From IMG/VR virus record IMGVR_UViG_3300032431_000082, positions 1 to 62,178 of that record: a stretch of 62,178 nt of DNA, one strand, 5' to 3'. Positions within the stretch are counted from its first letter, which is position 1; each line of letters begins with the position of its first letter. The notes below the pieces were generated by a model. It made no database searches and had not been told where the DNA came from. It saw only the letters and a program-made list of their open reading frames with translations. Shown here piece after piece: positions 3,401-49,521 of the stretch. The position numbers were made by a program, and so were the translations under genes. Source of the DNA: a virus. Taxonomy: Duplodnaviria; Caudoviricetes.

Positions 3401-4415
3401 GTTAAAGCATATGACAGAGGAGAGGTATGGCATACCTTCATACTGCTATGCTGATTGCTTATACCACTGCCCTGATGCAGCACCTACTACATTATGGGCC
3501 CATGACCTATTCCAAGTACATGCCAATCATGAAGTAGATATGTCTATCTTCCATAAAGCATTCTTACGATCTAAACTACCATTCTCTGTGCCCATTGAGT
3601 ACGATTGGCCATCTCTTGAGGCATTGACAGGTAAGGTGGGGATAGTACTAGATAACTGGTCACATGAGTTAGCGATGACTTACGGTGCCTTATTAAGGGG
3701 TAGGAGGGGGGCAGGTTTATCACAGGCAGTAGCCACTCAATTAGATGATTACTGGCCTGTAGTATCAAGGGAGCCTATGGAAGGTGATGACAGTTTAAGG
3801 GGGCGTTTGAGAGATAGATTATCTAGGGGCATTAACTCTACTAAGAGTGGGTTGATGCGATTACTAGGTACGCTACGCTCACCAGCGTTGCTAGGTAAGG
3901 ATACTTCCATACAAGGGCCACGCATATTGGGGTTACAGACATTACCTGCAGATACTAGATTCCCTAGCTACGCTGCCAAGTACCACGGTGGGGATAACAT
4001 ATACCCTTCATTCACATTAGATACCAATATTATGTTGAGTACTAAACAGGTACTAGATGTAAGGGAGGCTAAGGCATTTGGTGTATTAGATAATTACATA
4101 GGGAGGGCATTCTTACAATGTGCACAAGTACCAGCACCTACATTGAATATGAGTGTAACAGTAGGGGGCACGCCCCGCGTACATGCGGTATACCCGTGCT
4201 GTGATACTCTCGGCCCGTGTACTAGAGTGCGTGTAGATCTATACCTAAATGGGTTATATCCATACCCCTTGTATGTGGGGTTAGGCAATGATGGTATATG
4301 GTTCTTATCTAGGACGCATACTGATAGGACTAAGTGGATGTTCAGACCATGGCAGATGTTTATGGAGATAGTCACACCAGTAGGGTACGTATTACAGGAG
4401 ATAGTAGTCAGATGA
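453..4415 (+). CDS. Large baseplate-associated virion protein: Cys/acidic repeats, putative alpha/alpha-barrel domain and C-terminal P2 gpI-like wedge motif
   Basis: GGAGG lies upstream of ATG 453 (ORF track starts at GTG 438). N-half has repeated CVDEEC/CTDDC-type motifs. The middle is helical (SNRTVAWVLLAL...TSTNVVVYIAL...YLWD...F.HG). The C-terminal REPMEGDDSLRGRLR...RG..ST..GL..LL resembles tail protein I, and the gene follows baseplate J. Confidence 0.55.
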   Translation: MYTTQDLCHEALIGLLTRPGGEALTLSMDGEDPLRPLIHIELTNTAGPLEGRVVGLKGTLTTSPYELACTDDCWDGAGIWTTVPPIVIDYPDYPYDVDCVDEECMLPYRPTCLVEYLSLENVCAVDEAVDCSAWGREYVTNYRVEVLTDCGAPPVPVVMTDCELGECVEQWVGTDWCKVYDIKDTPLIPVDADCYDLECIATCPSRAGKVAICWGGPFEDGVVDEECYVKGYYVSVYDPSECVDECVVSPWVPLQWRDCEGNVYPMQGGPIDTVWVPGIHVVGDLTYKVEVGCTDNCVDGDSSELIVSVLSTPYDSLCVDSDCINEYVPVATGNWVDGTWVVQPIHEERIPYQHTVYTPMECVDSECVTDDCYVDGIYTLVDMTLGACSVDILQYLIDSAPTPYCREIDTYSIWGGFTWPLCEDDNRSEEIIVSRTCIECEEQVYDGFTYRRQGGDIEYYVRGMSNGKAVYVVDIGYLHPTCYEPMWVETWVPIYEDGRFRGKHTLPVGVIPFLRVREVTYSRDKVILHHIEYGRPTLGRVRTSSLLYHNSTDSAVDIEELAVTLVGIMLAPCRVKAPCQTVQGNGPDPYLNPLVLDNLILLAGLLDNGTVILPSAMSTTDACGISTTTTATSDTTVVTNRVGSIPKTLTTYATYDLIYNDALYTRQPAYPLEDGILVNTCMGKYWDDNYPVDDHTLEEYDCTAECVDKWDVKEVLPSREVSNRTVAWVLLALSTWRHAMGPMAVIDGAIDRVSNYLLQEVHGNGLVGKGWTHSDTYRDSVPIPTIETSTNVVVYIALMKVYDLYRSTRVLSSTVRMYDGMMGYLWDNRWGAFTHGISDTPHISLDSILHGIWFGYAMGRAEIVEGGLGLLQTRTRPISLLPSQPIWDAHSIRGCTLIGSPSRAITCETLPVYHEVNTTLEIIKTLTRCGIRYTDPYTKLVMVGDVEHKGYLRMLLDGMSTLVANNQYTVPYLPLLDDYRTLWLKHMTEERYGIPSYCYADCLYHCPDAAPTTLWAHDLFQVHANHEVDMSIFHKAFLRSKLPFSVPIEYDWPSLEALTGKVGIVLDNWSHELAMTYGALLRGRRGAGLSQAVATQLDDYWPVVSREPMEGDDSLRGRLRDRLSRGINSTKSGLMRLLGTLRSPALLGKDTSIQGPRILGLQTLPADTRFPSYAAKYHGGDNIYPSFTLDTNIMLSTKQVLDVREAKAFGVLDNYIGRAFLQCAQVPAPTLNMSVTVGGTPRVHAVYPCCDTLGPCTRVRVDLYLNGLYPYPLYVGLGNDGIWFLSRTHTDRTKWMFRPWQMFMEIVTPVGYVLQEIVVR
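3871..3897 (+). mobile_element. Micro-palindromic element family B, in-frame 27-nt insertion
   Basis: CGCTACGCT-CACC-AGCGTTGCTAG is flanked by the direct repeat CTAGGTA (3864-3870 and 3891-3897). Near-identical cores occur at 26953 and 42206. Confidence 0.7.
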
Positions 4416-5524
4416 GTAAGAAGGTATTAATAGTGGGAGCCGGCCCCAGAGGTATAGCTGTAGCCATAGAAGCTAAGAGTAGGGGGTATGAGTGTGTGCT
4501 CATAGATAAGTACCCCATGACCTCATGGAATGATACGGCGCCGGGCATGATGATGAGGAGCCCACTATGCTTTGACTTAGTGTACCCCGGGTCTAGTACA
4601 TGGGATGATTACTCGCTCATGAAGTATGTAAATCCTAGTACTACTGAATCACATTGGGGGGAGTGTCAGCAAAGAGGCATGGAGTACCAAGAAGATAGGT
4701 GCTCACGTGATACATTTATATCCTATGCTACTAAATGCTTACATAAGACGCAGTACCCAGTCATCAAAGATAGAGTATTGATGGTAGGTAAAACGTGGGT
4801 GAGAACTAGTAATGAATATATTATTGGGGATGTAGTAGTAGTAGCTACAGGTTTATCCCCTATAACTAATATCCCGCAGTGGGTGGAACCTGTAAGTCAT
4901 AAGTTAGTAACTACTAGGGAGATCATTGATGGTGTACCTCTGGGAACCTATGCTGTAATAGGGTCGGGGCAGAGTGCTGCGGAGTACTCACTACTACTAT
5001 CTACGCAAGGTCATAAGGTGTATTGGTTAGTTAATGATAGGCCAAGGGTATCACAGTACCCGGCCCCTAGCTATATAGACTGGGGGTTAAAGAGTGCACT
5101 ATCAGGGTATTACCGCACTATCCCCAGTGACATGATGAAGGAAGAGTACATGATGCAGATAGGACAGTGGCAACCATCTATCACACCTATGGTATCTACA
5201 TTAATACATCAACAAGGTAATAGTATATCTATACTTGAAGGGCCTGGCAGTAGGGAGGGGTACCAGACGTGGGAGACCCTACATAGAAAGATTGATGGGG
5301 TATTACTGTGTACTGGCAGTAAACCCTCGGCCATTGATTATGGTGAGGAACCATATAGAGTGGCGGGTAAGTTAGTACTAGATAGTTTCATGGCCAGTAA
5401 TGGTGTGTACCACACAGGGTTAGTGGCGGTAGGGTATGATGGTCCTAGACAAGCATCCCTAATTAGTGCAGGGATAACAGCTAAGGAGATATTAGACCAT
5501 GCCGATCTGGATAGCCAATCATAG
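4412..5524 (+). CDS. FAD/NAD(P)H-dependent flavoprotein monooxygenase (lysine/ornithine N-hydroxylase-like, class B)
   Basis: N-terminal VLIVGAGPRG (FAD), W..PGMMMRSP, VVVATG, second Rossmann motif VIGSGQSAAE, PSITP and VLLCTG. ATG 4412 overlaps the upstream TGA (ATGA). Confidence 0.8.
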   Translation: MSKKVLIVGAGPRGIAVAIEAKSRGYECVLIDKYPMTSWNDTAPGMMMRSPLCFDLVYPGSSTWDDYSLMKYVNPSTTESHWGECQQRGMEYQEDRCSRDTFISYATKCLHKTQYPVIKDRVLMVGKTWVRTSNEYIIGDVVVVATGLSPITNIPQWVEPVSHKLVTTREIIDGVPLGTYAVIGSGQSAAEYSLLLSTQGHKVYWLVNDRPRVSQYPAPSYIDWGLKSALSGYYRTIPSDMMKEEYMMQIGQWQPSITPMVSTLIHQQGNSISILEGPGSREGYQTWETLHRKIDGVLLCTGSKPSAIDYGEEPYRVAGKLVLDSFMASNGVYHTGLVAVGYDGPRQASLISAGITAKEILDHADLDSQS

Positions 5525-27208: not shown

Positions 27209-27284
27209 GTGATTAAGTCCTGTATGCCCATATTGCTCCTCTGTTATTAGAGGAAGGTATGGGTATGTGTATAGGTGTGCGGGT

Positions 27285-29099
27285 ATGGTTAAGAAGGCAG
27301 CAGTAGCTACATTAGGGGATGCCATGGATGAACTCATGGCGCATATATCAACGAACCTAGGGCCGATTGGTAATGTACCGATAGTGGAGTTCGCGGAGGA
27401 GATACTATTCAATGGTGATATAAAGCTATTCCCCCAGCAGAGGGCGATACTAAAGGCATTCTATAATGAGCCCTTGCTAGCGGAGGAAGAGGACATCTTA
27501 TGTAGGTGGGGGGAGGTGGCAGAAGATGGTGATGTGAGGACTAATTGGGTAAAGGGTAGACAGTATACATCATTGGTAGTTGAGGCAGGGAGGCGTGGTA
27601 CTAAGTCTGCAATGGCATCAATCATCACCTTATATGAAGATTACAACCTATTACTATTACCTAACCCAGGCTTGCACTATGGTTTACTACCATCGGAGCC
27701 TATAGCTCTATTCTTATTCTCACAGAGTCAGGAGCAAGCTAATGAGACGCTCTTCGGTAAGTTAAGGGGGTGGTGCTCATACTCGAACTACTTCTCAACA
27801 TTAATAGACTCAAAGGTATTAGAGGTATTGAGGGAGGAGATACGTAGCCCCGAGAAGAACATAGGTGTGTACTCTAAACACACCAATAGCCCGGCCCTGG
27901 TAGGGTACTCACTGAAGATGATCTTATTAGATGAGGTGGCACGATTCACTACCACAGAGGAAGGGAAGAATATAGGGGATGAACTATGGGATAACGTAGG
28001 CGCGGGCGTGTCCACATTCGGTAGTGAGGGTAGGAAGGTAGCCATATCATCGGCATGGTGCAAGGGTGATAATATACAGCGCCTATGGGAGTTGAGTAAG
28101 AGTGATCAGAGCATGCTGTCATTTAGGTTGAGGACATGGGATCTAAACCCTAACATGACCCGATCTAACCCTATCATAGCGTCTGCATACTCTAAGAATG
28201 CTGTAAAAGCACGATTGGAGTATGAAGGTATACGAGCTACAGGACAGGGTGACTTCATAGGATTAGATAAGTTAGTAGCCTCACAGGTGGGGCCTTCTTG
28301 TGTGGATAGTAAGGACGTACCATTAGATGTAAGTAGTACGCAGGGTGTAAGGTATTACGCGGGGGTTGAGGTGTTACGGCTGGAGAGCTTAGCGGCAGAT
28401 GAGGCGCAATCGTATGGACATATGGATTATGGTATCAAGCGGGATACGGCAGCATTCGCCTTAGCTAGGCCCGTAAAGGTAGGTAAGGAGTGGTTGATAC
28501 AAGTAGATGGGTACTTGAATTGGACACCGTACGTGGATGCTGAGGGTAGAAAGAGAAATGTAAGTATAGGTAATGTGGAGAGTACATTACTGCAAGTATG
28601 TAGGGCGAGGAGGGTAGCTAGACTATCATTTGACTGTTACCAGAGTGAGCACACAATACAGGTGCTACACGAGGCGGGGATATATACAGAGGAGTTATCA
28701 GCGAGTAGGAGTGCACAGTACCAGTACTACTCAACGTACAAGAACTTACTATATGCGGGTAAGTTAGTGCGGCCCAAGGATGCACTATGGGTGGCAGAAG
28801 TGAATACACAGATATCTGATTTACAGTTGAGAGGTGTGGATCAGGATGGTGGGTCACCCAAGATAGTGCATACGATTAGTGGGAAGGACTTAGCAGATGC
28901 GGAGGTCAATGCTGTATATCAATGCCATCTGCACATGTTACGTGCAGGGATGAGCACTGATACCACGCCCACAGTTAGTCTGGTAAGTAAAGCCTCAATG
29001 AGTACACAGAAGATAGGTGCACGTGCCATGAGATCTGAGGTAGGTAATCTTAGGGGTTACGGTAGGGTGAGGGACAGGACTATAAGAAGGCCCTATTAA
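27285..29099 (+). CDS. terL: Terminase large subunit
   Basis: LFPQQ adenine-binding motif, Walker A AGRRGTKS, Walker B ILLDEVA, ISSA coupling motif, and RuvC-like nuclease motifs HMDYG...D, FD.YQS and KDLADA. The start is uncertain (27267, 27285 or downstream). Confidence 0.9.
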   Translation: MVKKAAVATLGDAMDELMAHISTNLGPIGNVPIVEFAEEILFNGDIKLFPQQRAILKAFYNEPLLAEEEDILCRWGEVAEDGDVRTNWVKGRQYTSLVVEAGRRGTKSAMASIITLYEDYNLLLLPNPGLHYGLLPSEPIALFLFSQSQEQANETLFGKLRGWCSYSNYFSTLIDSKVLEVLREEIRSPEKNIGVYSKHTNSPALVGYSLKMILLDEVARFTTTEEGKNIGDELWDNVGAGVSTFGSEGRKVAISSAWCKGDNIQRLWELSKSDQSMLSFRLRTWDLNPNMTRSNPIIASAYSKNAVKARLEYEGIRATGQGDFIGLDKLVASQVGPSCVDSKDVPLDVSSTQGVRYYAGVEVLRLESLAADEAQSYGHMDYGIKRDTAAFALARPVKVGKEWLIQVDGYLNWTPYVDAEGRKRNVSIGNVESTLLQVCRARRVARLSFDCYQSEHTIQVLHEAGIYTEELSASRSAQYQYYSTYKNLLYAGKLVRPKDALWVAEVNTQISDLQLRGVDQDGGSPKIVHTISGKDLADAEVNAVYQCHLHMLRAGMSTDTTPTVSLVSKASMSTQKIGARAMRSEVGNLRGYGRVRDRTIRRPY

Positions 29100-29113
29100 T
29101 CCTGTCCCTTTAG

Positions 29114-29281
29114 TTAGCGGGTACCACCTCCTTCCCTTCTACCCGGTGCACCTTCTTCAGGTGGCTTAAATGATTGAGAGATTGGTGTAATAGAGACATC
29201 AAGCATGGTCACTATCTCAGAGGGGAGTGTTGGCGCACTCCCCACATTAAGAGACAGTAAGGCCGTTGCAGTTAAGATCAT
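29114..29281 (-). CDS. Small putative secreted peptide (55 aa) ending in a DUF928-like PP..G.PGRR.GGGTR motif
   Basis: My translation: MILTATALLSLNVGSAPTLPSEIVTMLDVSITPISQSFKPPEEGAPGRREGGGTR*. GGAGG lies upstream. The ORF is below the ORF-track length cutoff. Confidence 0.6.
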   Translation of the reverse strand: MILTATALLSLNVGSAPTLPSEIVTMLDVSITPISQSFKPPEEGAPGRREGGGTR

Positions 29282-29434
29282 TAAGGGTTCCAGATGTACC
29301 TCCTATAGTTAATGCAGCTACAGATAGAGTATATTGTATATACATCTAAATGCTTGATAACTATAGCTAAATAACACATCTTAGAAATAGGATATGTAGT
29401 AGGTAAGGTAGATGTCTGAATAGGGAGGTGCTGT

Positions 29435-30229
29435 ATGGATTGTTGTAGTGTGTGGGATACGAGGAAGGTACCGATATTAGCTGTAGTTGAAGTCCCCCAT
29501 GAAGAGGACCCGCCCATTACGGGTAAGGAGCAAGTATTAGCAGCTAGGTATTACCTCCGTATATACCCCCCACAGAGAGGGCAGGTAGGTGTAGTATTAC
29601 CTACTAGATGGGATATCCCTATGGCGGGTGTGACAGCAGGTGTAGCGAGGGTTGTATTACCACCATCAGTAGGGTATGGGATTAATAGCTCCTATAGGGT
29701 AGAGTACGTAATGTGGAGACCTATATTGAATGGGGTGATGGTAGGGAAGAGAGCACGTGTGAGGGTACCTGAGAGGGTGATTAAAGAGGAGTACTGGAAG
29801 GTACCCCATAACCATAACAAGGTAATGGAGTTACGGATGGTACACCTAATGGAGAGAGATAATATCCCCATAGGTATTATGAACCCCATATCAGTGAGGA
29901 GTGCACCATGTACTACAGAGACCATGCACTGTGGTAGTGGGTACGATGAGCCCATAACGTGGGATATAATGGAGCGGCCCTTAGAGGGCACATATGATAA
30001 GTCATTAAGGGATATAACAATGGGTGTCGATATACCTATAGGTAGCGGGTACGTAATAGAGTACCTAGTACCACTAACCTTAAGGGATGTAGTGCAGTAT
30101 AAGCCAGATAGAACACATATAGGAGATATAGGATCATGCCACGACAGTTCCCAATGTTGCCCCCCTCTAGTTGCGCCATGGGGTCGTTTACCTGGGACCC
30201 AGGGTACAAGTACCCCCTGGTACTATTAA
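29435..30229 (+). CDS. Hypothetical protein
   Basis: 264-aa ORF with GGAGG upstream of the ATG. Confidence 0.65.
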   Translation: MDCCSVWDTRKVPILAVVEVPHEEDPPITGKEQVLAARYYLRIYPPQRGQVGVVLPTRWDIPMAGVTAGVARVVLPPSVGYGINSSYRVEYVMWRPILNGVMVGKRARVRVPERVIKEEYWKVPHNHNKVMELRMVHLMERDNIPIGIMNPISVRSAPCTTETMHCGSGYDEPITWDIMERPLEGTYDKSLRDITMGVDIPIGSGYVIEYLVPLTLRDVVQYKPDRTHIGDIGSCHDSSQCCPPLVAPWGRLPGTQGTSTPWYY

Positions 30230-30697: not shown

Positions 30698-33600
30698 ATG
30701 GGTGGTAGTGGGTGGGATGAGGGGTACATGCAGAGATACCCTACGCAGCAGTATGGGCATGGGGTACGTAATGATATTAGTAATACAGGGATGCGGCCTA
30801 TTAGTAGTAGGGGAGGTAGTAGTAAGTTAGTAAGAGGTGTCATTACCAATATAGCAGATGCGGATACGTTCACCGTAAAGATAGACGGTGATAGGAAGAT
30901 TATAAGGTTAGAGGGTGTAGATGCGCCAGAGTTATCGCACAAGTCCCAGGTATGGGATGCGTTAAACCCATGGAGTAGGTACAGTAATAGTAATGGGTAC
31001 AACCCTCTATCAGCAGTAGGTAAAGCATTCAATCAACCATTTGGGTGGGAAGGTACAGAACGTGTCAAAGAGTTAGTAGGTGATGGTACTGTATCTGTAT
31101 CATTTAAGGAGAAGGATAAGTTTGGTAGGTACGTAGGAGACATCATTACGGGGGAGGGTAAGTCTGTAGCTCAGACCCTTATAAAAGAAGGGTATGCACA
31201 CCCATACCAACCAGGCACTAGGTTCTATAGTAGCGATGTCTTCACGCCTGAACTACGGAAGGAGTGGTTAAAGACGGTAGAGCAAGGTAAGGGATTATAC
31301 AGTGACCCCTCTTACATAATGCCAGTTGAGTATAAGCATCCAACAATAGGTACTATAGTATCTATGCTCATACCACTACAAGAGAGTACTGCATCTAAAA
31401 CTAATAGGGCATTAATAGAGCGTCAGGTAGTAGAAGACAGAGCCAAGGCATTAGGTATACCGCAAGGATTTGCATCACTAGCAAGCAAAGATCAGGGGTA
31501 TTTACTCCCTGCATCTATGGGTGGTTCGTACTTCTATGCCCGTGGTCAATACAATGCCCTAATGAGGCAAGCAGGGCTAACTGAGAACATAATAACTAAT
31601 GATGATGCGTCAGTAGCCACGTCAATGTACCAGGTGGGGTATTTAGCGAAGCATGGGCGTAACGCAAACTCATTACCACAGGACGTGGGCAGTACTGTAG
31701 TGGCGGGTGCATTAGTAGGTACATTAATGGGCGGGCTCAGTGGCCGTGTAGGTGGGGCCCTAATAGGCACATTAGCGGGTGGGTTACTAGGTGCAGGTGT
31801 AGGGTTAACGACATCCTATGTGACACAGTACGATAAGGAGTTAACTGGTGGGGGCTTAGGTGCGGCCATCAATGAGTGGGGCGCTAGTAATGATTGGGGT
31901 AGATTATATAAGGATGAGGTAGGGTTCATACCCTCAATAACGGGATTAATAGGTAGGGTATTAGATAGGACGTACCTATATGCCTCACCTAGTGGTGCAC
32001 TGTGGGGTGATAAGGATAATGGGCAGGTAATAGGTAAGGGAGGCTTAAGTTACCCAGGGGAGAGTAAGGGGTTCTTCGAGACGTTCTTGAGTAAGGGGAC
32101 AGAGATAGCGATAGGTGCAGCATCATCTGTGGCTCTGTATTTAGCGATAGGTGAACCTATTAACATCCTCTTAGGGGAGATGATGAAAGGTGAGGTGGAA
32201 TCCCTAATTAATGTGGGTGCCTCCGCTAATACCTTCAGAGGGGGTATGGTACAGGGTATCTTTGCTAGACAGTTAACTACGGGCATGGGTATAGGGGCAA
32301 CCAATGTAACGGAGTATAGGGAGGAGTTACTGCGTGAGATAGGTAGTACCACTAGGGCAGACTATGAGGGGTTAGAGAGGGCCCGGTCTATGGTGGATTA
32401 CTTATCTGTAGAAAGGAAGGCAGTAGTAGGCTCACAGATAATGGTGCAGCATGACCCACGCACTACTAAAGGTAAGGCACTATTAGAATCTGCCATGGCA
32501 GACCTTCAGAGAATGGAGGGGGCGTATGGTATGAAAGGGTTCTATTCACTAGATAGGATGGGTGCGAGTGTGTACCACATGTCTACCTTGACGAGAGAGA
32601 GGTCTGGTACATTGATGGAGAACACGCTCAAGCCATTTATCTTAGAGCACATAGACCCATACACTGAGGGGTCGGAAGGGGCTAGAGAATTGCGTAAGGG
32701 GTTGAGTAATGTAGTCAATGAGATGAAGAGACCAGCCTTCCTTGATGTAGAGCTCAATGATAGTTCTAGTAGAGCACTGGCATTCATTAGGGATGTAGAA
32801 GAGAGGAGTCAGGTACTACTACAAGCTAATCCCCGTATTAGTAATGCGTGGCAGCAAGCGAGGGCGGATGTAGTACTGACGGGTAAGTATGCGAAGGTAG
32901 ATGATGATATAGCCAATGTCACATTCAGGTTAAAGAATGCTGGCAAGGATAGGGCATCACGTGTAGCGTCTGTAATACAGGAGGTATTGGACCTTGTACC
33001 ATTACCTATAACGCAATTCAGGGCAGTGAGTAAGCACTTCGGTGGTGGTGTGGAGAGTTCTAAAGACATCAAGGTACTGGGTGATATATTCTCCTTCGAT
33101 GAGGTAACTAATTCAATAGGGCGCGCACTGCAAGGTACAGGTGGGTTAAGTGAGTACTTAGCAGAGTACAAGGCCTTGAGTAATACCCTCGGCCCTGATC
33201 TGGGTGTATTGAATGCAATAACAGAAGGCCCAGGTAGGATACTCCAGCACATTAAAGAGAGGCGTGAGGTAGTGAAGTCTTTAGAGGCATCCTCAGTAGC
33301 TATATCGAAGATGGAGAGGTCACTGTTTGCTAGCGGTAATATAAGGTGGGGGCATGAGATACCTGCGGATATGCTGCAGAGGGTAGAGGATGAGGTAGTA
33401 CAGGGTATGAAGGCCATGAACCCTGCATTGGATATAGCGAGTACTAAGGTGCAGGCAGAGATATATAGAGCTACGCAGATGAAGTTAGGGCCATTAGTAG
33501 ATCCATTAGTAAGAGAGATAACATTAATAGATGATGTGATGTTAGATGTCCTCAAGATACCAGGGGCGAGGGGTGAGGTAGGTTCTAAGGCGATGTCCAT

Positions 33601-36600
33601 TATAGGGGAGACACTGAGGTCACGGCAGCACGCATCATACATGTCTGGCGTGACTAAGAAGAAGTTAGATAGGGTGCGTGCGGGGTGGGGGAAGGATGCC
33701 ACATCTGGTGTTACTAAAGGTAAGTTAGGTACTGCAGCGATTAGTATCATAGCCCTCAGCCTATTCGCGGAGAAGTTAGTGCGTACGACTGATGGGGTAT
33801 CTATATTCACCCAATTAACTACGGCCCTATCACTGAGGGCTGAGGGTATACAGGTATCTAGTGAATTTAAAGGGGATGCGTTACTGCCAACAGTAGCCGG
33901 TATGCCACTAGATTACCTATTAGCGGCAGGGTTATTCGTGCCAGCACATTACATTGCCTCCGCTAAGCAGGGACAGCGAATACTCACGTACGCCATGAGA
34001 AGGGATACGGTAGCGAAGGCATTGAATATTACAGCCAGTGAGTTATCTGGTGCCATTAGTGGTGCAGTACCACACCCGAAGGTAACATCCTTTAATGGGG
34101 GGATGGTAGGAATAGAACTATTCCCTAATACACCGCGCGTAGTACTGCACATGAGTGGTGTGGAAGATGACTTCATGCGTATGTCGTTCGCAGCCTTAGA
34201 AGGTAATAAGTGGAGGAATACGGCTGCCGCATGGGCACTATCATTAGTAGCGATGACAGTCTTAACAAAGGGCATTGCAGGGGCAATGAATACCTCAAGG
34301 AGTATGACATCATCGGGGACATTAGATAGTACAGTCCTTGGGTCATTAGGGGCAGTAGCTGCCGGCAGTATACTAGGACGCACGATGGGAGGTAAGGGTA
34401 TCGTATTAGGTACGATAGTTGGGGCAGTAGTAGGTGCGGCCATAGGTACCGTGACATCTTCAATGAGAGAAGGTAGAGAGGGTACATTAGACCCTATAGC
34501 ATTGGGATTAGTGGGTGTAGGTGTGGGTAAGGCAGTAGGTGGTAAGGGTAGGAGGGGATTGGCAGGGGCCCTTATAGGAGGTGGGTTGGGATTAGTAGCG
34601 GGTATGTTCACATCATTCCTGAAGGTAGGGAGGGATGATTGGGAGACAGTGAATAAGAAGGAAGGCACTATACTCGCAGACATGACAACGTACGTCAAAA
34701 GGGTGAAGGATAGGGCGAGGGCGGGGGATGCTTCACGCCTTGAGTTAATGGGCGCTTACTATGCGATGGGGTGGATGAAGACCTTACGTGGTAAGGAACA
34801 GGAACCAGGCTATGTAAGAGGAGGTACACAGGTCATAGCGAAGCAGGCCGTACTCCCTAACCTGCAGATGTTCATGGCGGAGAGTATAAAGGGTGCGACC
34901 TATAATGAAGATGGGTCTATGAGGACTATGGGTACATCCTATTACTCTGTAGGTATACAGGGCCCTATTGTAACGGGTATATCTATCCCCATACCATTAC
35001 CATTCAAGGTCACAAGGGATGCTAGGGGGACTGTAGGTTTGGCCCTGAATGAAGACCCTAATGTTGGGACATTTATGGGTGACTTCTCTACGGTACGTAC
35101 AGCAATACTGACGACACTCACTGGATTAGGATTGATAACAGGGACTGCTAACCTAGCACAGGCGGGTATACGGTCTCTGGCAACACGTACCCCATTCATG
35201 AAGAACATGTTAGATGGGGGGTGGGATAAAGGGATACGTGGGGTAGTGACTGCCTTAACGGATACGGCCCTAATACTACCGAGTAGTGCCTTACGCATCA
35301 GTATGTCAATGACTGGTGTAGATTATATGGTTGCTGGTAAGGCATTCATGCCGAAGGTAATGCCTGCGATACAATCCCCATCATCTATAGCGCAGGGGAT
35401 GTTGCAGACACCTACAACAATAGGTACCCGTTCCGCATTAACTGACCCATCATTCTATGGTAGACATATAGGTCGGGCCCTAATATGGGGTGTATTAGGG
35501 GCGGCAGCAGGTAGTGCCCTTGGTGCGGTGATGTCATCTAGTCCTACAGACCCTTACGCATCGCAGGCGGGGTCTACTACCGGTGGTGTAATAGGTGCAG
35601 TAGCAGGGAGTGGCTTGTATATGGCAGCGGCCCTAACTAAGGAGAGCCGCTTAGGGGCTGGCATTATATCCCGTATGGGGAGACCACGCATCCCATTACC
35701 TAATACATTGAAGAAGGTAATAGGTAGGGGGGCGGGTGTGCTAGCGCTTATGGCCACATTGGGGACGCTATTCACATCATCTACATTCGGTATAGCTATA
35801 GGTATGGATAAACCCCCCTCATGGTCTGGGTACCAGGAGAGAGGTAATGCTGCATTCAATGCTGAATCCACACGCAAGTTAGAGGGCGAGTACTTCCCCT
35901 CATGGGTACCTATATTAGGGTACAAGGCACCAACGGATGCGACAGGTGCCATCCCCAACTTAGAGGCAGGGGGGTGGACATATCAGAGGGCTATGACAGT
36001 GGCGATGTATGCAACTGTAAGTACTGCTGCCATGACGATGTACGGTGGCATGGGGAAGAGTGCCGGGGATACAGTAGATGAGTACATGAGATTAGTACGT
36101 AGGAAGAGACCGGCCCCTACAGATAATATAATGGCGCAAGCGAGGGAGAGTATATTGCAGTGGAAGGCATCGCACTTAGAGAAGGATATAGATACAATCT
36201 TGAGGAGGGGTCACGATATAGGTGGGGATGCACTAGCCAGTAACTTACAGGAGTACCATAATGCCTCGAAGGTTCTATACGATAATAAGATACATAAGGC
36301 GGTACAGATAACCCCCAACATAAGCCAGGAAGTTGAGACGGCCCTCGATACAGTAGTCTCGAAAGGGCGCGGTATAGGTGTATCGTTGAAGTTATTACCT
36401 GACCTATTACCTAGGAGAGCATTAAAGGGTGCGACTCTATTAGGGGCAGTAGCATTAGGTGTAGGGTTAGTTACTGCATCTATGGGTAAAGATAGTATGG
36501 ATAGGTTATATGACCACTTAGATGGTGGCAATAGCCTAATGAGATCCATAGGGGATACAGTGCGGTTATTTACGGGCACTGATAGGTCTATTAATGAGGA

Positions 36601-39600
36601 GTCCCTATTAGCGAAGCAGTACGTTAAAGAGGGTGGTGGTATCAATCTCCTAACTAATAGGAAGATGTTGAAGGGTAGCAAAGAGTTAGGGGCTACTGCC
36701 AGTTCACTATGGAAGCAGATGTCAGAGTTAATAGTATTCGATGCCCCCAATGCGTTCGTGGGGGTGCAGGTACTAGGTGGTGTGACATTGAGGAGGGGCG
36801 AGTTTGGGGATAGAGTGACGCCATACTTACAGGTGCAAGGGGCGGGGGCTGACCTATCAACTGCCACGTACTCTATGTCCGCATCATTCCTCTTCAATTC
36901 AATAGGTACTAGTCAGGACTTACACTTCAATATGGTCAATGCCATGAGGGAGTTACAGACATTGACTAAGGAGAATGTACCAATAACTCAGGCCCATTTG
37001 AGGAGGGCATCTATAGGTATACTCTCGTACACTGCCAAGATGCAACCCTTAGCTAAGCCTAGAAAGTATAGTGTCCCTAGTGCGGGTGCCTTATCGGCTG
37101 CTGCTAAGGATCCTTTGATAGCTCTCGCACTATCACATAGGCAAGCGGTCACTAAGCAGATGGCGCATCAGCCCCCTGAGTCATTAATATCGGCCATGTT
37201 GAAGGAGGATATGAATCCAGCCTATAACGGTATGGATAGTAGTCTAATGGGGGCGATACTCACGGGTAGTAAGTTAATAAGTAGTACCTTCGGGAATATG
37301 ATGAGGGAGGTACGCATACATGGTATCAAAGCGTTCAGTGTGAGTAAGAATGGTCTGAGGGATGACACTGTCCCGCTAGCGCAAGGGGAGTGGATTGAGG
37401 ATGAAGTAGCAACTGGTATAAGTGGTAAGACATCCTTAACGGATAGTCCCCTATGGACACCCGCTCGTATGTTACTAGGGGTACTACCTACACCTATAGC
37501 GTATACAGTAGGGCTGACAGCAGTAGGTACATTGGGTATGTTTGCTGCTGCATCAGTAGGTGGGTTCTTCTTGAATAGGGAAGTGAATGCCATAGAGGAA
37601 GCATTAGATAAACATTACTCTAGGGATTGGTTCTTACGTAGGAAGGTGGGTGAGTACGAGATATACCCACATAGGGTGGCGAGAGTAGTATCCCCTGCCG
37701 GTACACAATTGACCCCCCATAACCTATATACGATAAGTGAGGGTAAGCATGGGGCGATGTACTCAATAAACCCACACCTTACGGATAATGTCACTACTAG
37801 GGGTGTGGCACAGAGTGCTGTGATATTACCACCTGCTAAGGTACACCAGATTGTAGAGATAGCGCAAGACGCCATCAATAGTTCCTTGAAGACTAATGGT
37901 GTCCTATTTGGTGATTACATGAGGACACAACCGTACCTACAGCAAGTTACTAATGCCGTGACTAATGTACACGGTAAGCCTATGCGGGTCAGTACATTAG
38001 TAGATGAGATATCATCGCCAGTATTGGATGTAGTTGATAGGTACTTCACTGCCTTAGACAATACATCTCTAGTTAGTAAGGTATTAGTTGGTAAGGATGT
38101 AGTAGAGTATAGGGTACCATTCCTATCGATATTCACTAATGCCCCTATAGAGCAGATAGTAGCGAACCCTAAGTCATGGGGAAGTGTTTATGGGGAGGGG
38201 TTCCAGGCATCTATAGCGAATAGGTTTGCGGATGGTATGCAGCCATACAATACAGTAGTAACACCCACGGGGGTAGAGTTATTAGACCCTGTGGGCACCT
38301 ATAAGGATGAGATAAAGAAGGTAATAAGGGAGGTAGTGGAGAGCGAGTTACACCAGTCAGGCTCCCTATTGAAGTTGAATAAGGGGGCGGTGAAGACTGA
38401 TGAGGATGGGATACTCCACTTAGTGCAGAGGGCATTGGATAAGCTAAGAGATAAGGGCGGGCCCCTAGGGAAGATGAGGCATGAATGGGCAGGTATGGCG
38501 ACACCCTTGCCCTTAGATGTAGCGGATAGGTTTGAGGAACTATTGGGTGAGAGTATAGATATGGGTCATAATGCCACGCCCCACGCTACCACACAACCAG
38601 GTAGGAGGATGGGGCCGGGTGTATCATCAACACCCCGTGGTATAGGTGGCGGTATGTCTGATGCAGAGTGGAGAGCTAGGAGGAGTAAGCCTACCAATTG
38701 GGGGAAGGTACAGAAAGGTGCAGGGGTTCTGACAGAGACACTATTCTCAGTGTTCAGTCTATTCGAGGCCACTGATATATGGGGGGCATTCGGTAGGGCG
38801 GCAGAAGCTTATGCACCCGACTCCACTTATACAACAGGGGAGCAGAAGGAGTTAGCACAAGAGGCTGGGTATGTAGGGGCTATGAGCTTACTATCCGCCG
38901 GTGTGATGGCTGGCGTAATGTTTGTAGGCGGTAAGTTGGTAGCCGGTATAGGGGTTATGGTTGGATTAGCGGGGGCATTAATTACAGGAGGTGTAGGGTT
39001 AACCTTCGGTAGTATTGCCTCTTTAGTGGGTCTAGGATTATTAGCTATAGGTGCGATAGGGACAGCCACGTACGGTCTAGTTAACTTACTAGCACCGCAG
39101 GGTATAAAAGATTCAGTCAATGGGTGGGTTAGTAATACAGGGTCTGCAATAGGTAAAGGATTAGGGGGTGCCGGCACTGCGATAACTACAGGTGTGACAG
39201 CGACTGCTAAGGGGGTATCTAAGGTATTTGATTGGTCTGTAAATACATTAGCCAATACTGTAGACACAGTAGGTAAGAAGACAGGTGCCACAGGTGTAGC
39301 TATGTTAGGTGGTGCGATAGGCGGTATTGCATTAGGGGGTGCTATAGCCAGCCTATCGTATGTGGCGGGTAGTGGGGCAGTAATGGCTGCTGGTGCGGGT
39401 ATAGCGGGTGTATTAGGATTAGGGGCCGGTGCTGCTGCGATAGCGGGTGGGGCAGTTATAGCGGGAGGTGTAGCTTTAACTAGTGCCTTAGTAATGGGGT
39501 TATGGGGGACGCTAGACCCGAAGGGGATGCAGAGAGTATGGAGTAAGATTACATCCACCCTATCGGGGGCTACTAAAGATGTGCCTATGATAGGGGAGGG

Positions 39601-40327
39601 ATTCCTTGCTACTAAGAGGGGTACGTGGTTGCAGGGGTATACCAACCCTATGGGTTCAGATAGTCCATTCTTTGTAGGTACAGCGCAGCAAGCGATAGAG
39701 TGGGAGTTCCAGAAGACTATAGAGCTCAATATGGATTACACGGGGGATAGGGTAGCATCATCTATCGTAGACCCATCCATATATGGGTACAGCCCTACAG
39801 CCCCCACCAATAGTGCACTGAGACCTGACTCTGTAGTAGATAATATGATCTCCTCTGAGATTAAGTTACGTGGTCAGTTACATAATCAGACCATCATAGG
39901 GCAGTACATATGGAGGTCTATACTATCATCTGCCAGTAATAAGGAGGTCATCCTCAAGGAGGAGAGGAGGCACATACAAGCCTCATATGATAGGGTGGTT
40001 GCTATTATGGCCCCCAGTGCAGTGGCTGGGACTACCCTATCAATTAGGGAGCAAGTAGATATGAAGGCAGTCGCTACTCTTACTGCATCCATTAAGAAGG
40101 CAGTATCTGATGGTACACCGAAGGGCGTGACCTTAAAGGTGAACTTACCAGCAGCGCACCCTAGTAGTATACAGGCCCCCACGCCTGCCCCTCTGATGGT
40201 AGATAAGGCCCGGTCTACTACCAATCAGAAGGTTGTGGTAAAGAAGACTTACAGCCCATTGAATGTGTACTTCATGGATGTTGTAATACAAGCCGTCGCA
40301 TACCCCGGGCATAGCGCCTTAACGTAG
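30698..40327 (+). CDS. Giant tape-measure-like / ejection protein with N-terminal thermonuclease (SNase) domain
   Basis: IADADTF...IRLEGVDAPEL...DKFGRY.G...LIKEGYA matches staphylococcal nuclease motifs. The remainder is helical with many Gly/Ala-rich hydrophobic glycine-zipper segments. Confidence 0.7.
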   Translation: MGGSGWDEGYMQRYPTQQYGHGVRNDISNTGMRPISSRGGSSKLVRGVITNIADADTFTVKIDGDRKIIRLEGVDAPELSHKSQVWDALNPWSRYSNSNGYNPLSAVGKAFNQPFGWEGTERVKELVGDGTVSVSFKEKDKFGRYVGDIITGEGKSVAQTLIKEGYAHPYQPGTRFYSSDVFTPELRKEWLKTVEQGKGLYSDPSYIMPVEYKHPTIGTIVSMLIPLQESTASKTNRALIERQVVEDRAKALGIPQGFASLASKDQGYLLPASMGGSYFYARGQYNALMRQAGLTENIITNDDASVATSMYQVGYLAKHGRNANSLPQDVGSTVVAGALVGTLMGGLSGRVGGALIGTLAGGLLGAGVGLTTSYVTQYDKELTGGGLGAAINEWGASNDWGRLYKDEVGFIPSITGLIGRVLDRTYLYASPSGALWGDKDNGQVIGKGGLSYPGESKGFFETFLSKGTEIAIGAASSVALYLAIGEPINILLGEMMKGEVESLINVGASANTFRGGMVQGIFARQLTTGMGIGATNVTEYREELLREIGSTTRADYEGLERARSMVDYLSVERKAVVGSQIMVQHDPRTTKGKALLESAMADLQRMEGAYGMKGFYSLDRMGASVYHMSTLTRERSGTLMENTLKPFILEHIDPYTEGSEGARELRKGLSNVVNEMKRPAFLDVELNDSSSRALAFIRDVEERSQVLLQANPRISNAWQQARADVVLTGKYAKVDDDIANVTFRLKNAGKDRASRVASVIQEVLDLVPLPITQFRAVSKHFGGGVESSKDIKVLGDIFSFDEVTNSIGRALQGTGGLSEYLAEYKALSNTLGPDLGVLNAITEGPGRILQHIKERREVVKSLEASSVAISKMERSLFASGNIRWGHEIPADMLQRVEDEVVQGMKAMNPALDIASTKVQAEIYRATQMKLGPLVDPLVREITLIDDVMLDVLKIPGARGEVGSKAMSIIGETLRSRQHASYMSGVTKKKLDRVRAGWGKDATSGVTKGKLGTAAISIIALSLFAEKLVRTTDGVSIFTQLTTALSLRAEGIQVSSEFKGDALLPTVAGMPLDYLLAAGLFVPAHYIASAKQGQRILTYAMRRDTVAKALNITASELSGAISGAVPHPKVTSFNGGMVGIELFPNTPRVVLHMSGVEDDFMRMSFAALEGNKWRNTAAAWALSLVAMTVLTKGIAGAMNTSRSMTSSGTLDSTVLGSLGAVAAGSILGRTMGGKGIVLGTIVGAVVGAAIGTVTSSMREGREGTLDPIALGLVGVGVGKAVGGKGRRGLAGALIGGGLGLVAGMFTSFLKVGRDDWETVNKKEGTILADMTTYVKRVKDRARAGDASRLELMGAYYAMGWMKTLRGKEQEPGYVRGGTQVIAKQAVLPNLQMFMAESIKGATYNEDGSMRTMGTSYYSVGIQGPIVTGISIPIPLPFKVTRDARGTVGLALNEDPNVGTFMGDFSTVRTAILTTLTGLGLITGTANLAQAGIRSLATRTPFMKNMLDGGWDKGIRGVVTALTDTALILPSSALRISMSMTGVDYMVAGKAFMPKVMPAIQSPSSIAQGMLQTPTTIGTRSALTDPSFYGRHIGRALIWGVLGAAAGSALGAVMSSSPTDPYASQAGSTTGGVIGAVAGSGLYMAAALTKESRLGAGIISRMGRPRIPLPNTLKKVIGRGAGVLALMATLGTLFTSSTFGIAIGMDKPPSWSGYQERGNAAFNAESTRKLEGEYFPSWVPILGYKAPTDATGAIPNLEAGGWTYQRAMTVAMYATVSTAAMTMYGGMGKSAGDTVDEYMRLVRRKRPAPTDNIMAQARESILQWKASHLEKDIDTILRRGHDIGGDALASNLQEYHNASKVLYDNKIHKAVQITPNISQEVETALDTVVSKGRGIGVSLKLLPDLLPRRALKGATLLGAVALGVGLVTASMGKDSMDRLYDHLDGGNSLMRSIGDTVRLFTGTDRSINEESLLAKQYVKEGGGINLLTNRKMLKGSKELGATASSLWKQMSELIVFDAPNAFVGVQVLGGVTLRRGEFGDRVTPYLQVQGAGADLSTATYSMSASFLFNSIGTSQDLHFNMVNAMRELQTLTKENVPITQAHLRRASIGILSYTAKMQPLAKPRKYSVPSAGALSAAAKDPLIALALSHRQAVTKQMAHQPPESLISAMLKEDMNPAYNGMDSSLMGAILTGSKLISSTFGNMMREVRIHGIKAFSVSKNGLRDDTVPLAQGEWIEDEVATGISGKTSLTDSPLWTPARMLLGVLPTPIAYTVGLTAVGTLGMFAAASVGGFFLNREVNAIEEALDKHYSRDWFLRRKVGEYEIYPHRVARVVSPAGTQLTPHNLYTISEGKHGAMYSINPHLTDNVTTRGVAQSAVILPPAKVHQIVEIAQDAINSSLKTNGVLFGDYMRTQPYLQQVTNAVTNVHGKPMRVSTLVDEISSPVLDVVDRYFTALDNTSLVSKVLVGKDVVEYRVPFLSIFTNAPIEQIVANPKSWGSVYGEGFQASIANRFADGMQPYNTVVTPTGVELLDPVGTYKDEIKKVIREVVESELHQSGSLLKLNKGAVKTDEDGILHLVQRALDKLRDKGGPLGKMRHEWAGMATPLPLDVADRFEELLGESIDMGHNATPHATTQPGRRMGPGVSSTPRGIGGGMSDAEWRARRSKPTNWGKVQKGAGVLTETLFSVFSLFEATDIWGAFGRAAEAYAPDSTYTTGEQKELAQEAGYVGAMSLLSAGVMAGVMFVGGKLVAGIGVMVGLAGALITGGVGLTFGSIASLVGLGLLAIGAIGTATYGLVNLLAPQGIKDSVNGWVSNTGSAIGKGLGGAGTAITTGVTATAKGVSKVFDWSVNTLANTVDTVGKKTGATGVAMLGGAIGGIALGGAIASLSYVAGSGAVMAAGAGIAGVLGLGAGAAAIAGGAVIAGGVALTSALVMGLWGTLDPKGMQRVWSKITSTLSGATKDVPMIGEGFLATKRGTWLQGYTNPMGSDSPFFVGTAQQAIEWEFQKTIELNMDYTGDRVASSIVDPSIYGYSPTAPTNSALRPDSVVDNMISSEIKLRGQLHNQTIIGQYIWRSILSSASNKEVILKEERRHIQASYDRVVAIMAPSAVAGTTLSIREQVDMKAVATLTASIKKAVSDGTPKGVTLKVNLPAAHPSSIQAPTPAPLMVDKARSTTNQKVVVKKTYSPLNVYFMDVVIQAVAYPGHSALT

Positions 40328-47089: not shown

Positions 47090-48589
47090 GTGCGAGAGGT
47101 GTATATGCAAGAAGGTAATAATTATGAATGGGCCTTATCTAACTTAGTTACGACTATAGGTGCGGATAGGGCGGTGGTATTCCAATTCACTGAGGATTAT
47201 ACTGGTGGTACATTTATAGCATCATCGGGTGCTCCTATACCAGGTAGTACCCCCCCTACTATAAATTGGCAGCAGTGTACTGTAATGGATTCGCTATTAG
47301 ACGAAGAGTACTGGTCATTAGAGGATAAGGATACCATCACTTCCACTACTCATAGGGCACTCGTGGATAGTCTGTGCGTACGGTCATACCTATACTCCAC
47401 AATAAAGGTATTGGGGATTGTGTGGGGCGTGGTAGGGGTACATAACATCAATAGCCCGCGCAAGTGGAGCCCCGATGATAAGTCATTACTACAGACTACC
47501 GCCCTACACATAAGTGGGAGCCTCTTGAAGGAAGCTCTTGTAGAGAATATATCATTACACTCTAAGATAAAGAAGAGTAAGATGTTACTGCAGAAGGTCA
47601 TCGATAGTACGCCCGTATACCTAGGAATAAAAGATGATACAGGTAAGTTTATATTAGTGAATAAGGCACTATCTGAGGCTGCTGGGTATACTAGCCCCAA
47701 GGATATGGTGGGTAAGGTAGAGTGGGGTGATTACTTCCCCGCAACCTCTATAGAAGAGGAGGGCAGTGTACTAGCGACTGGGGAGACAGTGATATCCTTA
47801 TCCAGTAAAGGTAAGGATAGATACTTTACTGTGCATAGATTATTCGTACCTGGTGATAATGTTTTAGAGCCTATGGTTGTATCCACATTAATAGATATAA
47901 CAGAGTTAGCAGTCATCACTAAGAGGTTAGAAGATTTCACGCGCATAGCTAGTCATGACCTGCAAGAACCATTACGCACTATCACATCCTTCTTAGGATT
48001 GTTGAAGAAGAGACATGGGAGTGAGGTATCATTAGCAGCATTACATTACGTGGATACAGCAATAGATGCGTCTAAGAGGATGGGTGAATTACTAACTGAC
48101 CTATTAGAGTACTCACGCTTGGGGTCTAAGACTAAGTCTATGAAGTGGGCACCCCTATCAGATGTATTAATGAAGGCACTAAGGAATCTATCCGGTAAGT
48201 TAGTGTTTGATGTATGCCCCACTATAATGTACGACCCCAATGGATTCCCAGAAGTGTGGGGTGATGAGGTGCAGTTAATAGCATGCCTACAGAACGTACT
48301 ATCTAATGCCATTAAGTTTGGTGAGGGGGCGCCTATAGAGATAACGCATACTGTAACAGACACACATTGGGTTATCTCTGTAGCAGATCATGGTGTGGGT
48401 GTACCGGAGGGTATGGAGCTAGCCATATTCAGACCATTTAAGAGGGCACAGAGTAAGTTCGAGGGGACTGGTATGGGCTTAGCGATAGTAGAGAAGGTAG
48501 CTCACATACATCAAGGTAGTGCGTGGGTCACTGCTACACCTGGTGGTGGTGCTACTGTACACGTGAGTATCAAACGACATGAACACTAA
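47090..48589 (+). CDS. GAF-PAS sensor histidine kinase (Cph1/COG4251-like transmitter)
   Basis: GAF (ADRAVVFQF...WGVVGVH...PRKW...LL), PAS (VIDSTP...KD..G....N...DITE), H-box ASHDLQEPLRTI, N-box QNVLSNAIKF, G1 DHGVG, F-box IFRPF and G2 GTGMGLAIV. An alternative start is ATG 47105. Confidence 0.92.
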   Translation: MREVYMQEGNNYEWALSNLVTTIGADRAVVFQFTEDYTGGTFIASSGAPIPGSTPPTINWQQCTVMDSLLDEEYWSLEDKDTITSTTHRALVDSLCVRSYLYSTIKVLGIVWGVVGVHNINSPRKWSPDDKSLLQTTALHISGSLLKEALVENISLHSKIKKSKMLLQKVIDSTPVYLGIKDDTGKFILVNKALSEAAGYTSPKDMVGKVEWGDYFPATSIEEEGSVLATGETVISLSSKGKDRYFTVHRLFVPGDNVLEPMVVSTLIDITELAVITKRLEDFTRIASHDLQEPLRTITSFLGLLKKRHGSEVSLAALHYVDTAIDASKRMGELLTDLLEYSRLGSKTKSMKWAPLSDVLMKALRNLSGKLVFDVCPTIMYDPNGFPEVWGDEVQLIACLQNVLSNAIKFGEGAPIEITHTVTDTHWVISVADHGVGVPEGMELAIFRPFKRAQSKFEGTGMGLAIVEKVAHIHQGSAWVTATPGGGATVHVSIKRHEH

Positions 48590-48980
48590 AAGGATATTAA
48601 TCATAGAAGATAGCTTAACTGATGCACACCTATTCGAGGAAGCTATAAAGGATTGTGGGGTAGATATAGGGGTGCAGATAGTTACTGATTGGGCAGGGGC
48701 TAGGTTAGCACTACAACATAGTGACACGCCCTTGAGACTAGTGTTACTAGACTTAAACTTAACTGGCGTAGGGGGGTGTGAAGTAATAACCCTCATAAAG
48801 AAGACAGAGTCCCAGGTACCTATAGTAGTATTCTCTACCTCCTCTAACCCCAGTGATATAGATAGGTGCTATAAAGTAGGTGCTAATGCTTACATTGTTA
48901 AGCCATATGATGTAGATCAATTGTTTGAGACCATGTGCTCCACATTTAAGTGGTGGTTAGATATCAATAAGATAGCGTAG
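48579..48980 (+). CDS. Single-domain response regulator (Rcp1-like)
   Basis: ILIIEDS..D, LLDLNL, PIVVFSTS....DI..CY..GANAYIVKP. Confidence 0.92.
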   Translation: MNTKRILIIEDSLTDAHLFEEAIKDCGVDIGVQIVTDWAGARLALQHSDTPLRLVLLDLNLTGVGGCEVITLIKKTESQVPIVVFSTSSNPSDIDRCYKVGANAYIVKPYDVDQLFETMCSTFKWWLDINKIA

Positions 48981-48993
48981 GTAGAGGGTTCCG

Positions 48994-49521
48994 ATGAGTA
49001 ATTTAAGTATATTGTTGATTGAGGATAGTAAGAGTGATGTGATGTTGGTACAAGAAGCCTTACTACATAGACAAGACCACTACACATTAAATGTAGCTAG
49101 TACACTGACAGGAGGAATGAAGCTATTAGAGGCCCATAAATATGATGTAATACTACTAGACTTACTACTGCCAGACTCTAACCCCACATCAATACTAGCG
49201 CCCTTGATTAGTGTAATGGCCAATCACCCTGGTGAATACCCTACAGTAGTGGTATTCACTGCCATTGCGGATAGGGATATAGAGTTGGAAGCCTTACGCA
49301 TGGGAGCGCAGGGGTACTTCTATAAAGGTAGGTTAGAGCCTGACAGTGAGCAGTTATGGATTACATTGAATAACGCATCTGTCAGGGGGTCATATATACG
49401 CTCACTAATATCTGTAGGCTTACCTAAGTCTGGTATATCTATGAAGGTCGTCACTGACTCCCAAAGAGTATTCGATAATATAATAGATAATGCACAGGCG
49501 GGGAGTGGGTTAAATGGATAA
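48994..49521 (+). CDS. Response regulator receiver protein with a short C-terminal extension
   Basis: ILLIEDS..D, YDVILLDLLLPDS, VVFTA and ALRMGAQGYFYKG. No DNA-binding domain is visible. Confidence 0.88.
   Translation: MSNLSILLIEDSKSDVMLVQEALLHRQDHYTLNVASTLTGGMKLLEAHKYDVILLDLLLPDSNPTSILAPLISVMANHPGEYPTVVVFTAIADRDIELEALRMGAQGYFYKGRLEPDSEQLWITLNNASVRGSYIRSLISVGLPKSGISMKVVTDSQRVFDNIIDNAQAGSGLNG

Follow-up and report, generated by a model that had tools for sequence, protein, structure and literature searches.

A small gene beside the terminase gene of a jumbo cyanophage resembles the front end of host DUF928 proteins and may encode a mimic of their tail

Filamentous cyanobacteria of the Microcoleus family are the hosts of a jumbo cyanophage of lytic type that carries a small ORF next to its terminase gene. 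Judging by its sequence, the product of this ORF reproduces, on its own, the N-terminal segment of host DUF928 proteins and ends where the folded domain would begin. On balance, and with some reserve, we favour the reading that this peptide is a moron-encoded mimic of the host DUF928 tail; by imitating the DUF928 front end, the virus probably interferes with a surface sensing or secretion device of its host. The window, i.e. the stretch of DNA analysed here, spans an entire IMG/VR virus record (62,178 bases) that is estimated to be 37 % complete, with 63 % of the genome lying outside it. The locus contains the following features:

29114..29281, minus strand: the small ORF, 55 aa, MILTATALLSLNVGSAPTLPSEIVTMLDVSITPISQSFKPPEEGAPGRREGGGTR, with its ATG at 29281-29279 and its TAA at 29116-29114 (stop codon included in the coordinates)
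29222..29281, minus strand: leader, residues 1-20, moderately hydrophobic and conserved, aligning to the signal-peptide region of DUF928 paralogues
29180..29221, minus strand: linker, residues 21-34, fast-evolving
29117..29170, minus strand: copy of the tail motif, residues 38-55, FKPPEEGAPGRREGGGTR, finishing at the final residue of the ORF
29299..29303, minus strand: GGAGG, ending 17 nt before the ATG
29333..29360, minus strand, upstream of the ORF: match to a sigma-70-like promoter, TTATCA-16-TACAAT, from a consensus scan that found 2 sites where 1.1 were expected in shuffles
29069..29110, no strand assigned: hairpin with an 11-bp stem, between the two convergent stop codons
29100..29434, no strand assigned: spacer of 335 nt from the terminase gene to the next gene, a moron-like insert
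29032-29047 and 29391-29406: imperfect direct repeat of 16 nt (13/16 identical) that brackets the insert

The small ORF and the gene for the terminase large subunit (27267..29099, plus strand; Pfam TerL_ATPase) are convergent, and the frame exists just as an earlier note on this DNA had described it. A longer version is impossible because of an in-frame TAG eight codons upstream. The GGAGG which the same note had seen ahead of the start codon is indeed present, but its spacing is poor for a ribosome-binding site, i.e. far for a Shine-Dalgarno sequence. Public gene callers have identified the frame too, since JGI/IMG, Logan and ENA all list a protein identical to the 55-aa product. A Pfam scan of the peptide returned 0 families at E up to 10, and an NCBIfam search returned 0 matches; the lack of a Pfam match is explained by the PF06051 (DUF928) model, which starts only at the Glu of EGGGTR, so that the peptide overlaps 6 of its 184 positions.

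The likeness to an N-terminal motif of cyanobacterial DUF928 proteins, which the earlier note had pointed out, proved to be real and specific. When back-translated, the pattern F.PP..G.PG.R.GGGTR was found at no fewer than 120 loci of a species-representative genome collection, and cyanobacteria, many of them Microcoleus, were named in 75 of 80 titles among the matches listed; the same pattern was found in 0 of 2.9 million viral contigs. Among the 120 matches listed, the motif always lay in longer ORFs encoding proteins of 250-300 aa, was followed by at least 41 and usually about 195 residues, and came after the signal peptide, either directly or via a linker of about 45 aa. Protein clustering placed 119 of the 120 listed proteins in one cluster, and all 10 strict-motif proteins tested by Pfam scan were DUF928 (E 1e-32 to 1e-63). 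At the residue level, 16 of 19 positions of the phage tail are identical to the Microcoleus-type segment SFQPPEDGVPGRREGGGTR.

Since this first DUF928 set had been selected by a pattern derived from the peptide itself, blastp E-values against it are circular, as is the HMM built from it (39.9 bits for the ORF, 4.8 for the next match in the window), and the test was therefore repeated without that pattern. Chosen by the Pfam domain alone, DUF928 genes number 4-15 per genome in five cyanobacterial genomes, and only 6 of the 30 distinct paralogues carry the strict motif, the others showing variants of FxPPxxGxPxxRxGGGxRGxC. An independent HMM, built from the 24 non-strict paralogues, gave the phage ORF the top score among 1,957 six-frame segments (17.7 bits, E 2e-4), with an alignment covering residues 2-55, i.e. 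leader, linker and motif through to the last residue. Conversely, a profile of the phage peptide matched 94 of the 121 genomes in the family of genome G001; the best matches placed the motif region in ORFs of about 300 aa, and in the weaker ones residues 5-55 aligned to the N-termini of 252-aa paralogues. The longest DNA match between the phage ORF and host genes is 19 nt, and as DNA identity is nil beyond this, the segment is homologous to the DUF928 front end without being a recent capture.

Host proteins and phage peptide therefore have in common the succession of leader, linker and F.PP..G.PGRR.GGGTR. In contrast to DUF928, the phage product has the Arg of GGGTR as its last residue, so that the near-invariant Cys after the motif and the folded part, a beta-sandwich plus a helical domain, are missing; it also differs in being virus-encoded, in lacking a charged n-region and in having no Pfam match. 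No remnant of the domain was present elsewhere in the window, and the DUF928 Pfam domain (gathering score 26 bits) gave 0 matches in the six frames of the window. A search of viral contigs for DUF928 relatives with a single pattern of low sensitivity, taken from alignment A3, gave 8 pattern matches, none of which was confirmed.

The hydrophobic N-terminus described by the earlier note is real but weak. With a best 9-residue Kyte-Doolittle mean of 2.22, the leader falls within the span of 108 host DUF928 signal peptides (1.63-3.53), but its hydrophobicity is moderate and is equalled at the N-terminus by 13 % of the 104 small ORFs of the window. Moreover, 107 of 108 host DUF928 proteins have one or more Lys or Arg residues close to the start, and the phage peptide has none there. 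The leader thus seems to resemble the hydrophobic core of a signal peptide without the positively charged start, and predicted export of the phage peptide is doubtful because of both the missing charge and the share of small ORFs that are equally hydrophobic.

The ORF is conserved. A phmmer search against 1.84 billion representative proteins gave a single match, likewise of 55 aa, with 80 % identity and an E-value of 1.3e-19. The homologue P0001 and its cluster mate P0002 are 80-82 % identical to the window peptide, and length, start and stop are the same in all three. Conservation along the peptide is uneven: in the leader, 18 of 20 residues are identical in both P0001 and P0002; in the linker, 9 of 14 residues differ in P0001 and 8 of 14 in P0002, differences that imply a minimum of 9-10 nonsynonymous changes over some 31 nonsynonymous sites; and all three peptides share the last 21 residues without change. 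At the DNA level, a lineage about 10 % diverged, represented by contigs of two independent runs (X4 and X5), keeps the frame without indels and preserves the order of terminase gene, small ORF and next gene, differing at 43 of 419 nt within the terminase gene and at 18 of the 187 nt of 29106-29292. One of its differences, at 29181, is exactly the I34S change of P0001, while those within the motif stretch, at 29144 and 29159, are both synonymous. A near-identical copy, with 1 difference in 283 nt, was found in run X2 of another study.

From the codons of the window to P0001 and P0002, at least 12-13 nonsynonymous changes are needed, and 0 of them fall in the last 21 codons. By arithmetic from site counts, the chance that all nonsynonymous changes would miss these codons is about 0.002-0.003, the substitution counts resting partly on the P0003/P0001 protein pair and the synonymous count being incomplete, with 3 ORF differences resolved individually. 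Taken at the level of sequence, the ORF appears to be a real small gene under selection, and it is far beyond what chance would give. It was found in two lineages only: among 50,697 phage records, tblastn with the peptide gave no match, searches for DNA relatives gave 110 pattern matches in viral contigs, 462 in metagenome contigs and 24 in genome contigs, none of them confirmed, and none of 52 candidates for longer homologous proteins matched at E up to 10.

As for the genomic setting of the ORF, the closest phage record, that of Microcoleus phage My-WqHQDG, matched a 4,001-nt query with 75.9 % identity over 77 % of its length. In this phage, the corresponding junction, from the terminase stop to the start of the next gene, measures 22 nt vs 335 nt in the window. 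The small ORF sits inside this extra DNA, in the orientation opposite to its neighbours, and the gene beyond the insert is conserved and without a Pfam family. The My-WqHQDG record lacks the small gene, and matches to the pattern PGRR.GGGTR number 0 there. The minus strand of the hairpin has a folding energy of -30 kcal/mol (z -2.9), with 0 of 200 shuffles equally stable, and the hairpin could be a terminator for both convergent transcripts; a scan for T-run terminators found 0 at the locus. With an extra gene in the opposite direction, a promoter-like site and a hairpin, the anatomy of the insert looks like that of a moron. An RNA-element reading is without support, since an Rfam search of 28900-29600 gave 0 matches at E up to 1. 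The direct repeat was considered as an insertion scar and rejected, being too short and imperfect; it may be due to chance or be a trace of the origin of the insert. In the X4/X5 lineage, 87 nt at 29019-29105, in the area of the terminase C-terminus and the hairpin, are swapped for 80 unrelated letters between flanks that remain about 90 % identical, i.e. a local replacement hotspot lies beside the small ORF.

According to a preprint (bioRxiv 10.1101/2023.04.12.536658), My-WqHQDG is predicted from CRISPR spacers to infect Microcoleus, and the Microcoleus-type mat-forming hosts are said to include anatoxin producers of environmental concern. For the phage studied here, a CRISPR spacer of genome G120, which belongs to the same family as G001, matches positions 33077-33112 of the window at 33 of 36 bases, within a giant gene; the spacer belongs to an array of G120, at positions 1000-2100 of locus L169, whose repeats measure about 37 nt. 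The motif of this genome's own DUF928 paralogue is identical to the phage motif at 15 of 18 positions. The gene targeted by the spacer is an ORF of 3,209 aa at 30698-40327 with an N-terminal staphylococcal-nuclease-like domain and long hydrophobic stretches rich in Gly and Ala, whose product is probably a giant virion or ejection protein.

What the copied segment does in the host can be approached through its structure and conservation. In an AlphaFold2 model of a Microcoleus DUF928 protein (54-row alignment; mean pLDDT 76.8), a beta-sandwich and a four-helix domain are modelled from about residue 105 at pLDDT >88, while the first 100 residues, including the motif, reach only 45-59, so that the motif is placed in a low-confidence, apparently disordered tail. 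Nevertheless, this tail is as highly conserved among the 30 Pfam-chosen DUF928 paralogues as the core blocks, the motif having 2.40 bits per column and ranking fifth of the 18-column windows (range 2.27-2.83). Being disordered in the model yet conserved like the core, the tail would fit the profile of a short linear motif through which a partner is contacted. A Foldseek search of the model against the PDB returned generic beta-sandwiches of the Ig-like or carbohydrate-binding-module kind at E 1e-4 or weaker, and no functional lead.

The genes around DUF928 offer candidates for such a partner. The earlier note had placed DUF928 near CHASE2/CHAT signalling genes, and such neighbours do occur, but they are not the main ones of the paralogue that matches best. 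Near the strict-motif paralogue, a ShlB/FhaC-type POTRA transporter was found in 74 of the 120 listed loci, mostly directly downstream, and a transglutaminase-like protein in 75, whereas a CHASE2-cyclase lay directly upstream in 5 and a TPR-CHAT gene was nearby in 2; these counts come from phylogenetically close, hence not independent, loci. In G001, a tandem of the 252-aa DUF928 type, whose N-terminus is like the phage leader, adjoins a CHASE2 gene. More generally, paralogues of the NRQGGTHRG type were seen as tandems beside CHASE2, and those of the PGRR.GGGTR type with a ShlB-type transporter and a transglutaminase-like protein. The presence of paralogue-specific tail motifs in different modules suggests that DUF928 paralogues form cognate tail-partner pairs. 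A complex prediction of peptide residues 16-55 with residues 185-686 of a Microcoleus ShlB-like protein scored 0.16, with the mark at 0.32, and speaks neither way.

Based on these observations, the mimicry that we favour might operate as follows. The host DUF928 tail would serve as a short linear motif by which the protein touches a member of the envelope module whose genes lie alongside. Candidates for this partner are a CHASE2 sensor, a protease of the module, the transglutaminase-like protein and the outer-membrane transporter of the ShlB/FhaC type. During infection, the phage peptide would occupy the partner of the tail, either as a decoy or as a spoofed signal, and an envelope secretion or sensing pathway, e.g. 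a stress or defence response, would be blocked or falsely triggered; alternatively, the peptide might mask a surface component. As the virus keeps only the 18-residue tail under purifying selection, it is this tail that would be singled out as the functional contact, and the existence of a phage copy suggests that the DUF928 module matters in infection. It is tempting to speculate further, although here we are decidedly tentative and consider the odds to be against it, that a widespread, uncharacterised envelope module, made up of CHASE2 sensors and/or ShlB-type transporters together with CHAT or transglutaminase-like proteases, receives the DUF928 tail as its active peptide input, and that the tail-only version of the phage spoofs or jams this module.

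If true, the phage would encode a mimic of a host envelope signalling ligand, which would be a pointer to what CHASE2-type receptors sense. Genes for CHASE2 sensors, CHAT proteases and ShlB-type transporters adjoin those for DUF928, and to our knowledge no input is known in cyanobacteria for any of the three. Literature searches for DUF928, PF06051 or sll1891 gave little beyond a passing mention of an acid-stress response, and we found no literature that joins CHASE2, the CHAT domain and cyanobacteria. Phage morons and host-mimicking decoy proteins are a general class, with which the present case shares an independent, oppositely oriented small gene between conserved genes, a host-like sequence and absence from a relative; it differs in what is copied, namely a linear motif, short and disordered, from an envelope protein family that is uncharacterised, and we found no published case of a phage copying such a motif. 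Precedent for a protein-type input to CHASE2 exists in S. meliloti, where, according to PMC13001267, an outer-membrane beta-barrel allows CHASE2 cyclases (CyaD1, CyaD2 and CyaK, with NsrA) to sense a proteinaceous signal. The CHASE2 module type is the kind that hosts DUF928 genes, whereas the S. meliloti system, as presented in that text, involves neither DUF928 nor a phage component.

Two other explanations leave the signalling idea aside. It is unlikely, but deserves to be taken seriously, that the small frame is a functionless, decaying relic of a captured DUF928 gene that was deleted save for its front end. Such a relic could well have a leader without a charged n-region and a badly spaced GGAGG, be found neither in the nearest relative nor in any of the IMG/VR contigs searched, and be accompanied by no trace of the DUF928 domain in the window; it would hardly be expected, however, to retain frame, start and stop without indels in a lineage about 10 % diverged, nor to collect at least 12 nonsynonymous changes of which none falls in the last 21 codons, where only synonymous ones occur. 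Nor can the segment be young, given that it has no DNA-level identity to host genes, and one would not expect a neutral fragment of 168 nt to terminate, in each of the two lineages, precisely with the last residue of the motif. The same pattern of selection bears on the idea, which we consider improbable, that the product is an uncleaved small inner-membrane protein acting, e.g., on the export of the DUF928 precursor or on lysis timing, with the motif as a mere hydrophilic tail: the strongest selection is on the motif and not on the hydrophobic part, whose run of about 10 residues, with Thr, Ser and Asn among them, is short for a membrane span. What speaks for it is the leader, which has neither a charged n-region nor an obvious Ala-x-Ala cleavage site, together with the fact that many phage morons encode small membrane proteins.

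The remaining explanations stem from the earlier note, which had proposed a secreted signalling peptide or a mimic of a host signal, possibly forming a communication circuit with the phage's own two-component system, and had pointed to PatS/PatX as short signal peptides of filamentous cyanobacteria. We see very little chance that the ORF encodes an arbitrium-like peptide, for communication between phages or between phage and host, that is sensed by the two-component system of the phage. The arbitrium peptide AimP is made as a short phage-encoded pre-peptide with an active C-terminal piece, and the product described here is alike in being a short phage pre-peptide, with a hydrophobic start, whose conserved C-terminal piece would be the active one; a histidine kinase and two receiver proteins are encoded in the window as well. 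However, the receptor gene that adjoins the peptide gene in arbitrium is absent here, the neighbours being TerL and the conserved gene without a Pfam family; the kinase lies 18 kb from the ORF, and its 499 aa are taken up entirely by GAF-PAS-HisKA-HATPase, which leaves no stretch free for a sensor, whether membrane-bound or external. Co-occurrence with the kinase is not borne out in My-WqHQDG, which keeps the kinase (59 % identity over 99 % of the length) in a record with 0 matches to the motif. Furthermore, the conserved piece copies a host motif and is thus no private phage code, and genes for CHASE2, ShlB and CHAT are absent from the window, i.e. from 37 % of the genome. The two-component operon itself extends over 47090-49521 and consists of the kinase gene (47090-48589) and the genes for the two receiver-domain proteins. 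To a morphogen mimic of the PatS/PatX kind, which would act on HetR and alter filament differentiation, we give scarcely any credence. PatS and PatX are, like the phage peptide, small, with a hydrophobic start and a C-terminal piece rich in Gly and Arg that is functional in them, and the nearest language-model clusters of the phage peptide are PatX families. Yet the look-alike score, 0.79, falls short of a level attained by one in three shuffled proteins; the RG[ST]GR pentapeptide, which PatS and PatX carry near the C-terminus, is missing from a peptide that ends in GRREGGGTR; at E up to 0.001, the phmmer search of the 1.84 billion representatives turned up no relative of the PatX kind, the peptide's own homologue being the sole match; and DUF928 fits the tail much better.

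Searches with the motif pattern followed by a stop codon turned up two further ORFs. On one metagenome contig, a cellular tail-only ORF at 6943-7158 of L123 encodes 71 aa from a TTG or 64 aa from an ATG; the ATG is preceded by a well-spaced GAGGAG, and the ORF has a signal-like start and ends in FTPPNRGIPGRRQGGGTR directly before the stop. It adjoins ABC permease genes, and no DUF928 domain follows downstream. Tail-only versions of DUF928 may therefore exist in cells as well. On a GC-rich metagenome contig, an ORF of 203 aa without a Pfam family (L122, 272-883) ends in FVPPNRGIPGRREGGGTR followed by a stop, i.e. the motif is here the C-terminus of an unrelated protein. The idea that the end of the phage ORF marks a cleavage site, with Arg as P1 for a caspase-like CHAT protease, was set aside, as nothing supports it; the two ORFs just described have their end point forced by the search and are thus no test of it.

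The remaining content of the window comprises baseplate/tail-type genes and replication genes in addition to the kinase and the two receiver proteins. Amid the baseplate/tail genes, at 4334-5524, lies a gene resembling those of FAD/NAD(P)-dependent oxidoreductases, an unusual location for a redox enzyme.
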